From: Halorutilales archaeon Cl-col2-1
GTDB taxonomy: Archaea > Halobacteriota > Halobacteria > Halobacteriales > Afararchaeaceae
Assembly (NCBI GenBank): GCA_041891055.1
Contig: CP169074.1
Location: forward strand, 416,001-480,000
Length of the DNA stretch: 64,000 nucleotides
Direction of reading: 5' to 3'
A program made the position numbers and the translations under genes. The notes under the pieces are model-generated. The model saw nothing but the letters and a program-made list of their open reading frames with translations, searched no databases and was not told the DNA's origin. Below, one piece after another: positions 13,295 through 48,612 of this stretch; position 1 is the stretch's first letter, and each line of letters begins with the position of its first letter.

Positions 13295-14743
13295 CTTTCT
13301 GCGAGGAGAGAATCCCGCCCTTCAGGGCGGGAGTGAATCCGACAACTCCCTCACAACCCACTGTCGATGGCAGGCCGGATATTCAACGCTCATCCGTACC
13401 ATTAAGTAAGTTTATCGACATAGGCTATGTATGGCGATTGAGGTCACGCGAACCTACATTGGTTCCATCCAGAACCAGCGACAGGTTTACCATGGCCTCG
13501 ATTCGCTCGGAGACTCCGCCTCAAAAATCTGGAACGTCGCACGCTGGACAGCTGACCGAATCTGGGGCGAAACAGGCGAAATCCCAGACGAAGGAACGCT
13601 CAAAGCGTACATGAAGAACCGAGAGTGCTGGAAAGATTTGAACGCACAATCCAGTCAGAAAGTCATCGAAGAACTTTCCGACGCTTTCCAGTCATGGTTC
13701 GACCTGCGACACAAGGACGACAAGGCGAATCCGCCCGGCTACCGCAAACACGGCGACACTCGCCCCAAGAGTACGGTCACGTTCAAAGAAGACGGTTTCA
13801 AACACGACCCAGAGAACAACCGCATTCGCCTCTCAAAGGGAAAGAACCTGAAAGACCACCGCTCGGACTTCCTGCTCTGTGAGTACCAGACCCGCCCTGA
13901 CGTTGACCTCTCAGAAGTAACCAAGGTGCAGAACGTTCGCGCAGTCTGGAATGGTGAGGAGTGGGAACTGCACTTCGTCTGCAAAGTCAGCCTCGAAACC
14001 AACGACTCTGCTGGCAACGGAGTGGCAGGAATCGATCTCGGAATCAAGAACATCGCCACGGTCGCCTTCCCCGACGAATACGTTCTCTACCCCGGCAACT
14101 CACTCAAAGAAGACAAGCACTACTTCACCCGAGCAGAGTACGATACAGAGGGTGAGAACGGGCCGTCCGAAAAGTCGATGTGGGCACGTCGAAAACTCAC
14201 AGAGCGCGAGACACACTTCTACCACACGCTGACAGACACCATCATCACAGAGTGTGTCGAACGCGGTGTCGGCACGCTCGCAGTGAGTTGGCCCGAAGAC
14301 GTGCATGAGTCGGATTGGGGAAAGACCGGGAACAAGAAGCTGCACTCGTGGGCGTTCGACCGCATCTACCAGTACCTCGAATACAAAGGCGAGATTCGCG
14401 GTGTCGAGGTGCTGAAGGAGAACGAGTGGGACACCTCGAAAACGTGTTCACGATGTGGTGACGACACGAAGTCAAACCGTGTCGAGCGTGGACTGTACGT
14501 CTGCTCGTCGTGTGAAATGGTAGCCAACGCGGATTGCAATGGGGCGGAGAATATGCGGCAGAAGATAACTCTGAGTCCTCATGGTGAGGATAGGAGTAAC
14601 GGCTGTGTGGCACAGCCATCGACACACTTGTTCGACCGCGAGAGCGGGACGTTCAACACGAGAGAACAGGTCGTGTCGTAGACCGGCAAATATCCCACCT
14701 GCGGTACGGGAAGCCCCGCCGTTCACGGCGGGGAGGATGTCAC
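13295..14743 (+). mobile_element. IS200/IS605-family tnpB-only (IS1341-type) element 1
   Basis: Left hairpin TCCCGCCC-TTCA-GGGCGGGA 13313-13332; right hairpin CCCCGCCG-TTCA-CGGCGGGG 14714-14733; ends in TCAC; inserted 3' of CTAT with no TSD; no tnpA. Confidence 0.92.
13431..14681 (+). CDS. tnpB: TnpB RNA-guided nuclease
   Basis: PPGYRK, GIDLG (RuvC-I), TSKTCSRCG..CSSC Zn ribbon, NADCNGAENM (RuvC-III). Confidence 0.95.
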   Translation: MAIEVTRTYIGSIQNQRQVYHGLDSLGDSASKIWNVARWTADRIWGETGEIPDEGTLKAYMKNRECWKDLNAQSSQKVIEELSDAFQSWFDLRHKDDKANPPGYRKHGDTRPKSTVTFKEDGFKHDPENNRIRLSKGKNLKDHRSDFLLCEYQTRPDVDLSEVTKVQNVRAVWNGEEWELHFVCKVSLETNDSAGNGVAGIDLGIKNIATVAFPDEYVLYPGNSLKEDKHYFTRAEYDTEGENGPSEKSMWARRKLTERETHFYHTLTDTIITECVERGVGTLAVSWPEDVHESDWGKTGNKKLHSWAFDRIYQYLEYKGEIRGVEVLKENEWDTSKTCSRCGDDTKSNRVERGLYVCSSCEMVANADCNGAENMRQKITLSPHGEDRSNGCVAQPSTHLFDRESGTFNTREQVVS

Positions 14744-17923: not shown

Positions 17924-20617
17924 ATGTCCTTGACAGATATAGACACAGAGACTGACACCGAAGAAGACGACTCTACGTACGACCACGACGCAGTAGAGGA
18001 GAAGTGGCAGGAGAGATGGGAGGAAGAAGGTGTATTCGAGGCGGACGACGAGGGCGACGACAAGTACTACGTCCTCGGTATGTTTCCCTACCCCTCGGGA
18101 AAGCTCCACATGGGACACGTCCGCAACTACTCGATAACCGACGCCTACGCGCGGTACAGGAGGATGAAAGGGCACGAAGTCCTACATCCGATGGGATGGG
18201 ACTCGTTCGGACTCCCCGCCGAGAACGCCGCCTTAGAACGTGACACCAATCCGAGGGACTGGACTATCGACTGCATCGACTCGATGCACGACCAGATGGA
18301 GGCTATGGGGTTCGGCTACGACTGGAGCCGTGAGATAAAGACCTCCGACCCCGACTACTTCCGTTGGAACCAGTGGCTCTTCAAACGGTTCTACGACGAG
18401 GGTCTCGTCGAGAACAAGGAGGGCGAGGTCAACTGGTGTCCTTCGTGTGAGACAGTCCTCGCGAACGAACAGGTCGAGGACGACAGATGCTGGAGATGTG
18501 AGACCCCCGTCGAGACTAGGATGCTCGACCAGTGGTACTTCGAGATCACGGAGTACGCCGATGAGCTCCTAGAGTACCTCGAAGAGCTCGACGGCTGGCC
18601 CGACAGTGTCACGGAGATGCAGAGGAACTGGATAGGAAAACAGGAGGGCGCGAGGGTCGACTTCGAGGTCGAAGGCTACGGTGACGTCGAGGTCTTCACG
18701 ACACGTCTCGACACTATCCACGGAGCGACCTACATGGCACTCGCTCCCGAACATCCCGTCGCCGAGGATATCGCCGACGGAAACGACGATGTCGCCGACT
18801 TCATAGACTCGGTCGATGAGGACAGGGAAGTCGGACCCGATGCCGAGAAGAACGGCGTCTTTACCGGAGAGTACGCCGTAAACCCGGCGACTGGTGACGA
18901 GATACCCGTATACGTCGCCGACTTCGTCATGATGGACTTCGGCACGGGAGCCATCATGGCAGTCCCTGCACATGACGAGAGGGATCACGAGTTCGCCGAG
19001 AAGTACGACATAGAGATCAGACAGGTCGTCGAGCCCGAGGACGGTGACGTTGACGCTGAAGACGAGGTGTTCACTGAAGACGGCGTCCTCGTCAACTCGG
19101 GAGGATACGACGGAGTGGAAAGCGAGGAGGCGCGCAAGGCGATAGCCGAGGATCTCGACGCCGCGGAGGAAGATACCGAGTACAGGCTACGTGACTGGCT
19201 CATATCGAGACAGAGGTACTGGGGAACACCGATCCCCGTCGTCCACTGTGAAGACTGCGGGGAGGTTCTCGTCTCCGACGAAGAGCTTCCGGTCGAACTC
19301 CCCGAGTTCGTCCAGTCGACGGGCAACCCCTTAGAAGAGGTCGACGGCTTCGTCGAGACCGAGTGTCCCGAATGTGGCGGCGAGGCGAGACGTGAGACCG
19401 ACACGATGGACACATTCGTCGACTCGTCGTGGTACTTCCTGCGTTATACCTCTCCCGACTACGACGACGCCCCCTTCGACGTCGAGACCGCGAACGACTG
19501 GATGCCCGTAGACCAGTACGTCGGCGGCATAGAGCACGCAGTGATGCATCTACTCTACTCACGTTTCTTCACACACGTCCTCAACGACACCGACCTCGTC
19601 GACGTCAAGGAGCCCTTCGAGAACCTCGTGACACAGGGAATGGTTCTCTTAGAGGGAGAGAAGATGTCGAAGAGCAAGGGCAACGTCGTCTCGCCACAGA
19701 GGATAGTCGACGACTACGGTGCCGACACCGCACGTCTCTTCACTATGGGTGCCGCACTCCCCGAGAAGGACTTCGACTGGACCGAGAAGGGAGTCAAGTC
19801 GAACTACGCCTTCATAGAACGTCTCCACACACTCGTCTCGAACTTCACCGACTACGCCGAGGACGAAGACGACGCCCTAACTCGCGACGGAGCCGCAGAG
19901 AAGTACGTCGAAGCTGAGACAGACGCGACGGTAGAGACTGCGAGCGACGAGTACGAGAACTTCGAGTTCAACCACGCTGTCAGAGACGTCAAGAACCTCG
20001 TCTCTCTCCTCGAACAGTACTCCGAGTACAGGAACGGAGAGCCCGACCCCGAGGTGTTCAGAAGGGGTCTCGAAACCGCTGTCAAGGTACTCGCGCCGAT
20101 CACACCCCATGTCTCAGAGGAGATGTGGGACGAACTCGGAGGAGAGGGTCTCGTCGCCGAGGCGGACTGGCCCTCTGCGGAGGTACCCGACGACTACGCC
20201 CTCGAGGAGAGGCTGATAGAGAACACACGCGAGGACGTACGTGAGATAAGCGAGGTCGCGGGGATAGAAGACCCCGAAGAGATACGTATAATTACCGCGC
20301 CTGGCTGGAAGTACGACGCCCTACAGATCGCGCTCGACCTCGACTCCGACGCCGACGTTATCGGACGTATCATGTCAGAAGACGAAATAAGGAGACACGG
20401 CGACGCCGCCGCGAGCTACGGTCAGTACCTCCAGAAGAACCAGATGAAGCTAGAGGACGAGCTTCCGCCTGAGAGGGAAGCCGAGGCTCTCGAACGCGCT
20501 AGATGGCTCTTCGTGAAGGAGTTCGACGCCGAGATCCGGATTCAGAACGCCGACGAGTCGGACTCCGAGAGGGCGGACAAGGCACGTCCCGGAAAGCCCG
20601 CGATAGAGATAGAGTAA
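17924..20617 (+). CDS. leuS: Leucine--tRNA ligase (bacterial-type core, haloarchaeal form)
   Basis: MFPYPSGKLHMGH (HIGH), KMSKS, DWLISRQRYWGTPIP, archaeal-type tail ARPGKPAI. Confidence 0.97.
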   Translation: MSLTDIDTETDTEEDDSTYDHDAVEEKWQERWEEEGVFEADDEGDDKYYVLGMFPYPSGKLHMGHVRNYSITDAYARYRRMKGHEVLHPMGWDSFGLPAENAALERDTNPRDWTIDCIDSMHDQMEAMGFGYDWSREIKTSDPDYFRWNQWLFKRFYDEGLVENKEGEVNWCPSCETVLANEQVEDDRCWRCETPVETRMLDQWYFEITEYADELLEYLEELDGWPDSVTEMQRNWIGKQEGARVDFEVEGYGDVEVFTTRLDTIHGATYMALAPEHPVAEDIADGNDDVADFIDSVDEDREVGPDAEKNGVFTGEYAVNPATGDEIPVYVADFVMMDFGTGAIMAVPAHDERDHEFAEKYDIEIRQVVEPEDGDVDAEDEVFTEDGVLVNSGGYDGVESEEARKAIAEDLDAAEEDTEYRLRDWLISRQRYWGTPIPVVHCEDCGEVLVSDEELPVELPEFVQSTGNPLEEVDGFVETECPECGGEARRETDTMDTFVDSSWYFLRYTSPDYDDAPFDVETANDWMPVDQYVGGIEHAVMHLLYSRFFTHVLNDTDLVDVKEPFENLVTQGMVLLEGEKMSKSKGNVVSPQRIVDDYGADTARLFTMGAALPEKDFDWTEKGVKSNYAFIERLHTLVSNFTDYAEDEDDALTRDGAAEKYVEAETDATVETASDEYENFEFNHAVRDVKNLVSLLEQYSEYRNGEPDPEVFRRGLETAVKVLAPITPHVSEEMWDELGGEGLVAEADWPSAEVPDDYALEERLIENTREDVREISEVAGIEDPEEIRIITAPGWKYDALQIALDLDSDADVIGRIMSEDEIRRHGDAAASYGQYLQKNQMKLEDELPPEREAEALERARWLFVKEFDAEIRIQNADESDSERADKARPGKPAIEIE

Positions 20618-20639
20618 TCCACCTTCCTAACTCGAAGCC

Positions 20640-20935
20640 AACTCGGAGTCAGCGCAGACATACATTCTCTTATCCTCCGACAGTACTTACGTGCGTGGCG
20701 AGGACTCGCATTTCGGGTCAGTTTGCTCGTCTTGTCTTATCCCTAGCGTGCCTCGAACTGATCATGGACTGGCTGCATCGGCGACGGTAGGACATCAGAC
20801 ACGCTCTATTGGAGGTGCCAGCTCCACAGTGCCCGAACGGACGCTCGCCACGGTTCACGGTGCTGTCGGAGTCGGTTTATCGTCGTCACAGCCGTCTCAC
20901 CTTATCCTCCGAGACTCTTTAGGCTCGCCTAAACC
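20640..20935 (-). ncRNA. Putative structured ncRNA containing a bulge-helix-bulge-bounded 166-nt intron/circRNA (20688-20853); transcript ends are estimates
   Basis: Nested inverted repeats 20675-20686/20860-20871, 20690-20693/20856-20859 and 20694-20702/20844-20852, with two opposed 3-nt bulges; no credible ORF in the gap. Confidence 0.65.
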
Positions 20936-20967
20936 ACATGTCGGATGTTTTTAGCCAAGCCTAAAAA
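20918..20967. promoter_or_regulatory. Tandem DtxR/IdeR/MntR-type palindromic operators
   Basis: TTTAGGCTCGCCTAAA (20918-20933) and TTTTTAGCCAAGCCTAAAAA (20948-20967), both TTTAG-N6-CTAAA, 32 bp apart. Confidence 0.7.
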
Positions 20968-21039
20968 CCTTCCGAAGTCCGTATCTCCAACTCGTCGTCG
21001 TTGATGTCGAAAGCAAGTCTTCGCTTCCGGCTTTTCGAC

Positions 21040-21273
21040 TCAGCTTAGGAGAGAGTAGCCGAAGTAGACTCCGGCTATAATTAGAAGGACTCCGACAGAC
21101 TGGACGAGACGTCTAACACGGAGGGAAGGTTCCGAGTCAGAGCCGTACTCTCCCCGTCTGTCGGTGGGAAGACGTCCTCCGAGGTTGACACGGACTACTA
21201 TCTCGGGGAACCTCAGAAACACGAGACCTACTACTACGCCGATTACTGCCGAAAGAAGGGTTCGTATATCCAT
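21040..21273 (-). CDS. Small two-TM membrane protein
   Basis: Two hydrophobic helices; 7 bp downstream of htpX on the same strand. Confidence 0.7.
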   Translation of the reverse strand: MDIRTLLSAVIGVVVGLVFLRFPEIVVRVNLGGRLPTDRRGEYGSDSEPSLRVRRLVQSVGVLLIIAGVYFGYSLLS

Positions 21274-21280
21274 CTCAGTC

Positions 21281-22108
21281 TCAGTAGCTACGCAGGCGTT
21301 CTATCCTCTTCTCGACCGGAGGATGAGTAGCGAACAGACGTGCGATACCGACTCCGTCGCCGAAGATACAGAGCGCGTTGACATTGGCGTCGACCTCGGA
21401 TTTACGTGAACGCTCGTTTCCGCGGCTTATCTTTTCGAGGGCACTCGCAAGAGGCTCCCCACCGCCGATCTCGGATGCTGCGTCCCTGTCGGCGACGTAC
21501 TCCCTGTAACGTGAGATGGCGAAGACGACTGTCATCACCAGCATCTGAACCACCTGTCCGACTACTATCGCCATGAAGAAGTCGGCGAGGTCGTTGTCTC
21601 CGGTGAGGAGAACAGCCCACTCAGCCGTTATAGCGACTATCGAGGCTATGCCTTGACCCAGAACCATCATAACCACGTCACGGTTACGTATATGTGCGAG
21701 CTCGTGAGCGAGGACTCCCTCCACCTCGTCGGAGTTAAGCCTGTTGAGGAGCTCCTGTGACACGACGACAGTTCCGGCTCCCTTGCGTCCGACCGCGAAG
21801 GCGTTCGGTACCCCCATCTTAGCCACCATCAGACGCGGCTTCTCTATTCCCATGTCGTTGGACAGCGACTCGACACGTCTGTGTATCTCAGGGGCTCGAC
21901 TCTCGGGAAGGTCATCGGCTCCTACGCTTCTGAGAGCCGCCCACTTGCCGATCTTGTACTGAAAACCGACCAGTCCTATGCTTCCGACGAGAACTAAGGG
22001 GAGTGAAAGACCGAAGACACCCATCGCCACAGCGGCTGCAACAGCATACAGTGCAAAGAGGACTGATCCGGCTATTAGCATCCGAATCTTGAGTCCAAGA
22101 TGTCGCAT
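21281..22108 (-). CDS. htpX: HtpX-like M48 zinc protease
   Basis: PNAFAVG, HELAH, SRYREYVAD, THPPVEKRI. Confidence 0.93.
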   Translation of the reverse strand: MRHLGLKIRMLIAGSVLFALYAVAAAVAMGVFGLSLPLVLVGSIGLVGFQYKIGKWAALRSVGADDLPESRAPEIHRRVESLSNDMGIEKPRLMVAKMGVPNAFAVGRKGAGTVVVSQELLNRLNSDEVEGVLAHELAHIRNRDVVMMVLGQGIASIVAITAEWAVLLTGDNDLADFFMAIVVGQVVQMLVMTVVFAISRYREYVADRDAASEIGGGEPLASALEKISRGNERSRKSEVDANVNALCIFGDGVGIARLFATHPPVEKRIERLRSY

Positions 22109-48566: not shown

Positions 48567-48612
48567 CACCAAATCTACGATTTGGTTAGCCTCCAGATAC
48601 CGCATCTGGAGA
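48567..48612. repeat. 46-bp twin-hairpin micro-insertion A
   Basis: ACCAAATC-TAC-GATTTGGT plus CTCCAGAT-ACCGC-ATCTGGAG; CAC repeated at the junction. Confidence 0.75.

Follow-up and report, generated by a model that had tools for sequence, protein, structure and literature searches.

What does a tandem operator control when no gene begins beside it? The question is raised by a gap of 422 bp in the genome of Halorutilales archaeon Cl-col2-1 (2.06 Mb), within a 64-kb stretch of contig CP169074.1 that was analysed whole (the window, to which all plain positions refer). The gap is bounded by the 3' ends of leuS on the plus strand (stop at 20617) and of orf77, which follows an M48 peptidase gene, on the minus strand (stop at 21040). 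The unusual feature of the locus is that a full-strength tandem operator is present without a gene to regulate. The original prediction, made from the sequence of this stretch, had described two TTTAG-N6-CTAAA palindromes 32 bp apart from start to start between two 3' ends, and both the palindromes and their setting were found where it had placed them.

Predicted TroR operators and their regulon

The two palindromes and the T runs at box 2 are as follows.

20918..20933, both strands: box 1, TTTAGGCTCGCCTAAA, that is TTTAGGC-TCG-CCTAAA, followed on the plus strand by CCACAT; fits the TroR motif, 22.8 bits with the position weight matrix (PWM)
20950..20965, both strands: box 2, TTTAGCCAAGCCTAAA, that is TTTAGCC-AAG-CCTAAA, followed by AACC; fits the TroR motif, 26.5 bits with the PWM
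20948-20952, plus strand: T5 run, the first run of at least four T past the leuS stop; a TATA-like element and/or an oligo-T terminator
20963-20967, minus strand: T5 run (A5 on the plus strand), by reading the first run of five T past the orf77 stop; a TATA-like element and/or a terminator

Box 2 reads TTTAGGC-TTG-GCTAAA-AACA on the minus strand and widens to an 8+8 palindrome, GTTTTTAG-N6-CTAAAAAC, at 20947-20968. The pattern TTTAG-N6-CTAAA matched twice in the window, exactly at boxes 1 and 2; dinucleotide-preserving shuffles gave a mean of 0.01 matches per window and at least two matches in 0 of 100 shuffles. Genome-wide there were five matches, compared to 0 to 1 for each of the other spacers from 0 to 14 and 1 for a backwards control pattern.

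Both boxes conform to TTTAGGC-NNN-CCTAAAANAN, the operator determined by chromatin immunoprecipitation and sequencing (ChIP-seq) for TroR, a DtxR-family protein of Haloferax volcanii, and the match reaches the GGC/GCC core and the flanks. In the part of the Haloferax study used here and below (PMC10783522), the motif is often tandem and is given in the supplement as TTTAGGCHDRCCTAAAANAW. Reporter mutagenesis of the H. volcanii siderophore promoter found that tandem TroR motifs about 30 bp apart give iron-dependent repression and that one of the two copies is enough (PMC10783522). The boxes analysed here have the same half-sites, spacing (TTTAGGC-NNN-CCTAAA with an A/C-rich extension) and tandem arrangement as the Haloferax operators; they differ in that no gene follows them, and binding is known in Haloferax whereas here the assignment comes from the sequence.

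The bacterial DtxR/IdeR box is a 19-bp interrupted palindrome with another arrangement of the arms, and repression proceeds via promoter occlusion. The sites of this genome share with the bacterial DtxR, IdeR and MntR boxes the regulator family and a palindrome with TTAGG/CCTAA-like arms, but they differ from the DtxR/IdeR consensus in being 16-bp TTTAGG-N4-CCTAAA sites, and the boxes were therefore classed as the haloarchaeal TroR motif.

Two DtxR-family proteins, of 156 and 235 amino acids (aa), are encoded in the genome and score above the Pfam cut-offs of Fe_dep_repress and Fe_dep_repr_C. The 235-aa paralogue aligns over its whole length with the full-length (about 230-aa) MntR/DtxR models. 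SirR carries an SH3-like C-terminal extension (PMC10783522), and the extra C-terminal part of the 235-aa paralogue was taken as an extension of this type. By elimination, the repressor acting here is probably the 156-aa paralogue, which would lack the SH3-like tail. A PWM scan of the genome detected no TroR-type site near either DtxR gene.

The PWM had been trained on eight TTAGG-N4-CCTAA-type sites of this genome. Its top nine sites (21.8-30.6 bits) were the eight training sites and one more, and the next scored at most 18.9 bits. Four of the sites lie in one minus-strand cluster (C1:671484-680769), at genes for an LPG_synthase_TM protein, an RGP-family protein, an SBP_bac_6 binding protein and a GT2 glycosyltransferase. 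In this cluster the SBP_bac_6 ABC binding-protein gene is followed by a gene for a fused two-domain permease, and a PMT_2/DUF7846 protein, a Gluconate_2-dh3 protein and a GMC oxidoreductase are also encoded. The box of the RGP gene is 13 nt upstream of its ATG. Another site is flanked by genes for a HAD hydrolase and for an orphan ABC ATPase that carries a TOBE domain, and a tandem pair 26 bp apart precedes two moeA genes. The ATPase gene of the transporter, with a box of its own, is at C1:178476, 500 kb from the cluster. The moeA pair (C1:1459949-1459988) is located beside a gene for a PGF-CTERM surface protein, with one moeA fused to a PBP_like domain, and a tandem pair of this type is kept in the sister species (G001:C48:10458-10497).

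TroR peaks 23 and 24 of Haloferax lie at HVO_1704 (RGP family) and HVO_1705 (binding protein of an iron ABC transporter), and HVO_1613 (GT2) is in the high-confidence TroR regulon (PMC10783522). Since these three genes correspond to boxed genes of Cl-col2-1, part of the TroR regulon is common to both organisms: in each, the motif marks an RGP-family gene, the neighbouring gene for an iron ABC binding protein, and GT2. The present locus adds to the evidence that the TroR motif and this part of the regulon (RGP, iron ABC transporter, GT2) are common to distant haloarchaea. Genes of envelope or glycosylation type were observed within the iron regulon both here and in Haloferax.

Boxes in other haloarchaea were found via a DNA search of the order with the gap; 11 loci were inspected and nine proteins scanned. 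Near-copies of box 1 stood 4-8 nt before the ATG of Peripla_BP_2 (three), FecCD (one) and SBP_bac-type (three) genes.

Taken with the motif match and the two DtxR paralogues, these sites leave little doubt about the prediction that the boxes serve TroR, an iron-sensing repressor of the DtxR family, as operators. The operator itself is of a known kind, its motif having been published in 2023. The DtxR-type reading of the original prediction was borne out, and the genome scan that it had called for revealed the motif enriched upstream of metal-homeostasis genes, namely iron-uptake genes and TroR-regulon orthologues, in this genome and in other haloarchaea. The choice it had left between iron and manganese was narrowed: the sensed metal is most likely iron, acting through TroR, and manganese is less likely.

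Search for a protein target

The genes on both sides of the gap are given first.

17924..20617, plus strand: leuS, leucyl-tRNA synthetase, left neighbour (Pfam tRNA-synt_1_2, tRNA-synt_1 and Anticodon_1)
21040..21273, minus strand: orf77, a 77-aa membrane open reading frame (ORF), right neighbour, downstream of the M48 gene
21281..22108, minus strand: M48 (HtpX-like) peptidase gene, by Pfam

Among 29 M48 loci in other genomes, 11 had orf77 3' of the M48 gene by tblastn, as did 4 of 9 metagenome loci, and because of this conservation it was taken as a real gene. A gap of 422 bp is long for so compact a genome; with a crude gene call, the median length of convergent gaps genome-wide was 23 bp and their 95th percentile 417 bp.

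In neither direction does an ORF of at least 20 aa start beside one of the boxes. The CATG that lies between them opens a minus-strand frame that closes after 6 codons and a plus-strand frame that closes after 8. The longer local ORFs (87, 95, 46, 39 and 27 aa) look non-coding: neither Pfam nor NCBIfam gave a match on the local ORFs, the 87- and 95-aa frames included in the Pfam search, and in the 39-aa frame one difference from the sister species would, by reading, give Leu to Pro. Searching the gap by tblastn with seven binding and permease proteins from other boxed promoters, with the genome's own RGP and binding proteins, and with the binding protein of genome G061 (discussed below) found nothing, the best E-value of these targeted searches being 0.19. 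A genome-wide tblastn with DUF7331 proteins gave no match at the locus. The box region is non-coding, and the claim that there is no protein gene to control was upheld in both directions for ORFs, domain matches and pseudogene remnants.

The search for a small ORF was made this hard because other boxes had looked equally orphan. In 12 of 30 loci of other genomes a TroR box is located 177-414 bp downstream of dpsA, in an apparent convergent gap, and in all 12 (loci L088, L089, L100, L101, L103, L107, L108, L109, L112, L113, L116 and L117) an ORF of 49-56 aa opens 6-13 nt from the box. Pfam was run on four of them and all matched DUF7331, one above the cut-off and three below; the proteins share the motif ...RPGRxVFTE...DNxDxWIxTDLTVDLxR. 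The present locus resembles the dpsA-linked ones in having orphan-looking TroR boxes in a convergent gap, but differs in that no ORF adjoins the boxes. In this genome no Dps was detectable with the query used. In Haloferax, TroR ChIP peak 13 lies in the gap between dpsA and idr, where the part of the study used here lists no gene (PMC10783522); by analogy, a small DUF7331-like ORF may be the actual target there.

A candidate minus-strand RNA and its promoter

Tandem TroR boxes of the common class in other haloarchaea are 34-37 bp apart; their 20-nt spacer holds CGAAAC-like and TTTAG/TTTAT TATA-like elements, and CCAC-ATG comes after the proximal box. At the inspected loci of other genomes the spacing was 36 bp in 6 of 7 tandem pairs and 34 bp in the seventh. 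A survey of 201 genomes with the pattern TTAGG-N4-CCTAA-N8-30-TTAGG-N4-CCTAA gave at least one tandem match in 99 of them, and spacings were counted by hand from the 75 distinct sites among the matches listed, with 92 more sites beyond these. Among the 75, the spacings were distributed as follows.

36 bp: 37 sites
35 bp: 12 sites
34 bp: 12 sites
37 bp: 2 sites
29 bp: 7 sites
27 bp: 2 sites
26 bp: 2 sites
43 bp: 1 site

In another genus the RGP-family gene has a promoter of the 29-bp class in 6 of 6 genomes. The spacer of this class, CATCGACACACA, lacks a TATA element and resembles the minus-strand spacer of the present locus, ACATCCGACATGTGG. Moreover, box 2 with its flank is, on the minus strand, nearly identical to the box of this genome's own RGP promoter. 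Because of this likeness to RGP promoters, the pair resembles a leftward-directed TroR promoter of the short-spacer type, even if the exact distance between its boxes is uncommon. A TTTTTA-like run, GGTTTTTAGG, precedes box 2 on the minus strand. In haloarchaeal promoters the TATA element is, as a rule of thumb, about 27 nt before the start. The predicted start region, which was derived from this spacing and from analogy with this genome's leaderless RGP promoter, is the following.

20935..20940, minus strand: region where a minus-strand transcript is predicted to start, about 27 nt past the TTTTTAG of box 2; contains CATG

We tentatively read the boxes, by this analogy, as the iron-repressed promoter of a putative non-coding RNA on the minus strand, an answer that is possible though short of probable. 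It rests on the intact full-strength boxes, the RGP-like promoter, the long gap and the structured minus strand. When iron is plentiful, TroR would occupy both boxes and thereby block TBP, TFB and RNA polymerase: box 2 would overlap the T-rich TATA-like element and box 1 would cover the start region from +3 to +20. When iron is scarce, the non-coding RNA would be transcribed leftwards from about 20939-20935. Some 68 nt into this RNA there would be a structured domain of about 200 nt (217 nt, 20665-20881), closed by a motif of the bulge-helix-bulge (BHB) type that the archaeal splicing endonuclease could cut to yield a circle of about 166 nt. The rest of the RNA, without an oligo-T terminator, would continue into the 3' end of leuS, antisense to that gene. 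The parts of the predicted BHB, an inverted repeat, are listed here.

20844..20871, minus strand: 5' half, with the outer helix at 20871-20860, the central 4 bp at 20859-20856, the bulge AAC at 20855-20853 and the inner helix at 20852-20844
20675..20702, minus strand: 3' half, with the inner helix at 20702-20694, the central 4 bp at 20693-20690, the bulge UAA at 20689-20687 and the outer helix at 20686-20675; one C.A mismatch

Read on the minus strand, the outer helix consists of 9 bp, the C.A mismatch and 2 bp, the central helix of 4 bp and the inner helix of 9 bp. A scan written for BHB geometry placed the 23S processing stem first and that of 16S second, with the strand consistent with the order 16S then 23S. 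In a ranked scan that allowed one outer mismatch and a span of at most 400 nt, the BHB of the locus was the best short-range candidate genome-wide with a score of 20, followed by candidates at 19, 18 and 18; two shuffled samples of 1 Mb reached at most 16. With two 3-nt bulges, a 4-bp helix between them and flanking helices it has the geometry of the rRNA stems, the statistical support being modest. A looser scan of the gap (helices of at least 3 bp) was uninformative, with 18 matches against a shuffle mean of 12.2. The minus-strand fold of 20665-20881 had a z-score of -3.28, none of 200 shuffles being as good, and its minimum free energy structure contains the BHB; the plus-strand fold of the same region had z = -1.63, with 12 of 200 shuffles as good. 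For the whole gap (20618-20940) the minus-strand value was z = -0.01, so the significance is limited to the 217-nt core. In its account of the minus strand the original prediction had put a TTTTTA element at one box and the expected start near 20935 under the other, and this layout was recovered, with the TTTTTA-like run at box 2 and with box 1 at the place of a start some 27 nt further on; the BHB that it had assigned to the RNA has canonical geometry on that strand apart from the one C.A mismatch.

A BHB outside tRNA and rRNA has a precedent in the 5' untranslated region (UTR) of HVO_1309, which the part of the source used here describes as a substrate of the splicing endonuclease (PMC7714728). 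The two motifs have in common two 3-nt bulges, a 4-bp helix and flanking helices, and neither belongs to a tRNA or an rRNA; the one at the present locus is only predicted and has the C.A mismatch in its outer helix.

The putative excised part showed only partial matches to C/D-box features, by eye. An exact-word self-BLAST of the locus returned matches of 15-19 nt, with no clear meaning. One further element of the gap is a 12-nt direct repeat.

20669..20680: direct repeat CTTATCCTCCGA, copy 1, overlapping the BHB outer helix
20901..20912: direct repeat CTTATCCTCCGA, copy 2, abutting box 1

The genome has no copy besides these two, both at the locus, and the similarity extends over 21 nt at 81% identity. 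On the minus-strand RNA the repeat would read UCGGAGGAUAAG, with a Shine-Dalgarno-like GGAGG.

Both boxes are kept in the one metagenome contig that spans 20662-21700 (98% identical). In this strain variant the only changes inside box 1 are 20926 C>T and 20927 G>A, both in the NNN spacer, and box 2 is unchanged. Changes confined to the free spacer are consistent with selection, with no statistical power at this divergence.

RyhB, PrrF and IsrR are bacterial iron-repressed small RNAs that were first spotted via orphan repressor boxes. The candidate RNA is similar to them in that a box for an iron regulator lies on an intergenic promoter without a protein gene, but it differs in that the regulator is of the DtxR type and not Fur, and the RNA is a prediction from sequence. 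The stronger form of the proposal, an RyhB-like iron-starvation RNA whose core would be excised at the BHB and circularised, is doubtful. Our literature search found no archaeal iron-responsive small RNA under DtxR control in the portions of the sources that it covered. An RNA cut at the BHB and circular would be the first regulatory RNA controlled by DtxR/TroR in archaea, and its ends would be set by the tRNA-splicing machinery and not by a terminator. If the RNA is made, post-transcriptional iron control in archaea could be tested directly, linked to BHB processing.

A considerable number of observations weigh against a minus-strand RNA. With regard to the promoter, the 32-bp spacing occurs in 0 of the 75 matches listed from the 201 genomes, and the pair thus differs from the Haloferax and surveyed pairs at 34-37 or 26-29 bp; the locus's own pair is outside the survey pattern too, because TTAGG was demanded in both boxes and box 2 has TTAGC. 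Unlike that of the 36-bp class, the spacer here lacks a TATA element and a TFB-recognition element. With regard to the RNA itself, the C.A mismatch becomes G.U on the plus strand, which taken alone favours that strand, and BHB-like scores of 16-20 were also obtained in unrelated 3-kb loci of other, GC-richer genomes. The third-best long-range BHB match (C1:520386-523642) was rejected as inverted paralogous histidine-kinase coding segments with no Rfam match. No run of at least four T occurs on the minus strand over 2.3 kb, so there is no obvious minus-strand terminator. An Rfam search of 20300-21400 with E-values up to 10 returned nothing, and the locus sequence was found in none of the RNA runs searched, and in DNA contigs only.

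Conservation counts on the same side. The strain variant has no compensatory change, and one internal substitution breaks a predicted pair. An order-wide DNA search gave only matches of at most 52 nt, mostly the box itself or a GTCGTCGTC-rich stretch, so that beyond the boxes nothing is conserved outside the genus. A box was present in 1 of 29 M48/orf77 loci of other genomes and in 0 of 9 loci from metagenomes, in which the M48 protein as query had given no match closer than 80% identity. In the sister species about 1 kb (20692-21687) is missing and homology resumes at 21688 inside the M48 gene. The sister species and two metagenome runs have an IS605-type tnpB insertion element at 20691/20692, after ...ACTTACG, a point that falls within the 3' half of the BHB; all of them lack the boxes, orf77 and the part of the M48 gene for its C-terminal half. 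Because the element and the deletion replace 20692-21687, the sister species is uninformative on conservation. Finally, FecCD and Peripla_BP_2 genes number 0 in this genome, which is 99.5% complete, and this fits gene loss.

Alternative explanations

Gene loss leads to the possible, though unlikely, alternative that the boxes are relic operators, to which TroR may still bind and which once drove an iron-uptake gene or operon since lost from a streamlined 2.06-Mb genome. The missing FecCD and Peripla_BP_2 genes are the usual ones behind tandem TroR boxes in relatives, and the region is deleted in the sister species. In genome G061 a TroR box 3' of M48-orf77 directly precedes a gene for a Tat-signal lipoprotein, which has no homologue in this genome; it is probably an ABC binding protein, with no Pfam match. 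The atypical 32-bp spacing without a TATA element between the boxes also speaks for a relic, as does box 1 followed by CCAC-ATG as at real starts elsewhere, here with a frame that closes after 8 codons. However, both boxes are intact with scores on par with functional sites, no remnant of the candidate target proteins was found in the 422 bp, and an unusually long gap has been retained in a compact genome. The minus-strand fold is better than chance, and the syntenic gene of G061 occurs in only 1 of 29 related loci. A relic would be a record of a streamlined haloarchaeon shedding chelate-type iron uptake with the switch kept.

It is improbable that the transcript runs the other way, as an iron-repressed RNA from about 20976 rightwards on the plus strand, antisense to the orf77/M48 operon. 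The symmetry of box 2, which has T5 on both strands, would put the same TATA-like element about 27 nt before 20976, and the CCACAT extension of box 1 points right, as toward genes in most examples elsewhere. In this orientation, however, box 1 would be upstream of the TATA element and box 2 would coincide with it, no structured or conserved sequence follows, and a T4 run at 21032 could end transcription early. We know of no link of M48 or orf77 to iron, which also weighs against such a transcript.

A role in termination was given the same low standing as the plus-strand transcript. The T5/A5 arms of box 2 would then end both convergent transcripts, those of leuS and of M48-orf77, as a shared oligo-T terminator; TroR bound there would be at most a roadblock, and the long hairpin would belong to the leuS 3' UTR. 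The T5 runs of box 2 are indeed the first oligo-T signals past both stop codons, and the long hairpin pairs perfectly on the plus strand, with G.U in place of the mismatch. Termination would leave unexplained two full TroR consensus sites 32 bp apart, and the plus-strand fold is no better than shuffles (z = -1.63). It is, however, compatible with the other readings. That the palindromes are a product of chance, unrelated to any regulator, was effectively refuted by the shuffles (0.01 expected per window), an excess confined to one spacer length, the extension of the published-motif match into the GGC/GCC core and flanks, the PWM ranking and the sites at iron genes elsewhere. The probability that remains beside the minus-strand RNA, the relic, the plus-strand transcript and the terminator falls to functions of other kinds.

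Other RNA features of the window were also recorded. ARAGORN found no tRNA in the window. The sole Rfam family in it was sot0042 (RF02656), which matched the plus strand at 14563-14734 with 98.1 bits against a gathering score of 88. Perfect short hairpins of the form xGAAATC-NNN-GATTTCx were observed 104 times genome-wide (93 on C1 and 11 on C2), often grouped, and two of them are located in the window at 48571 and 50010.

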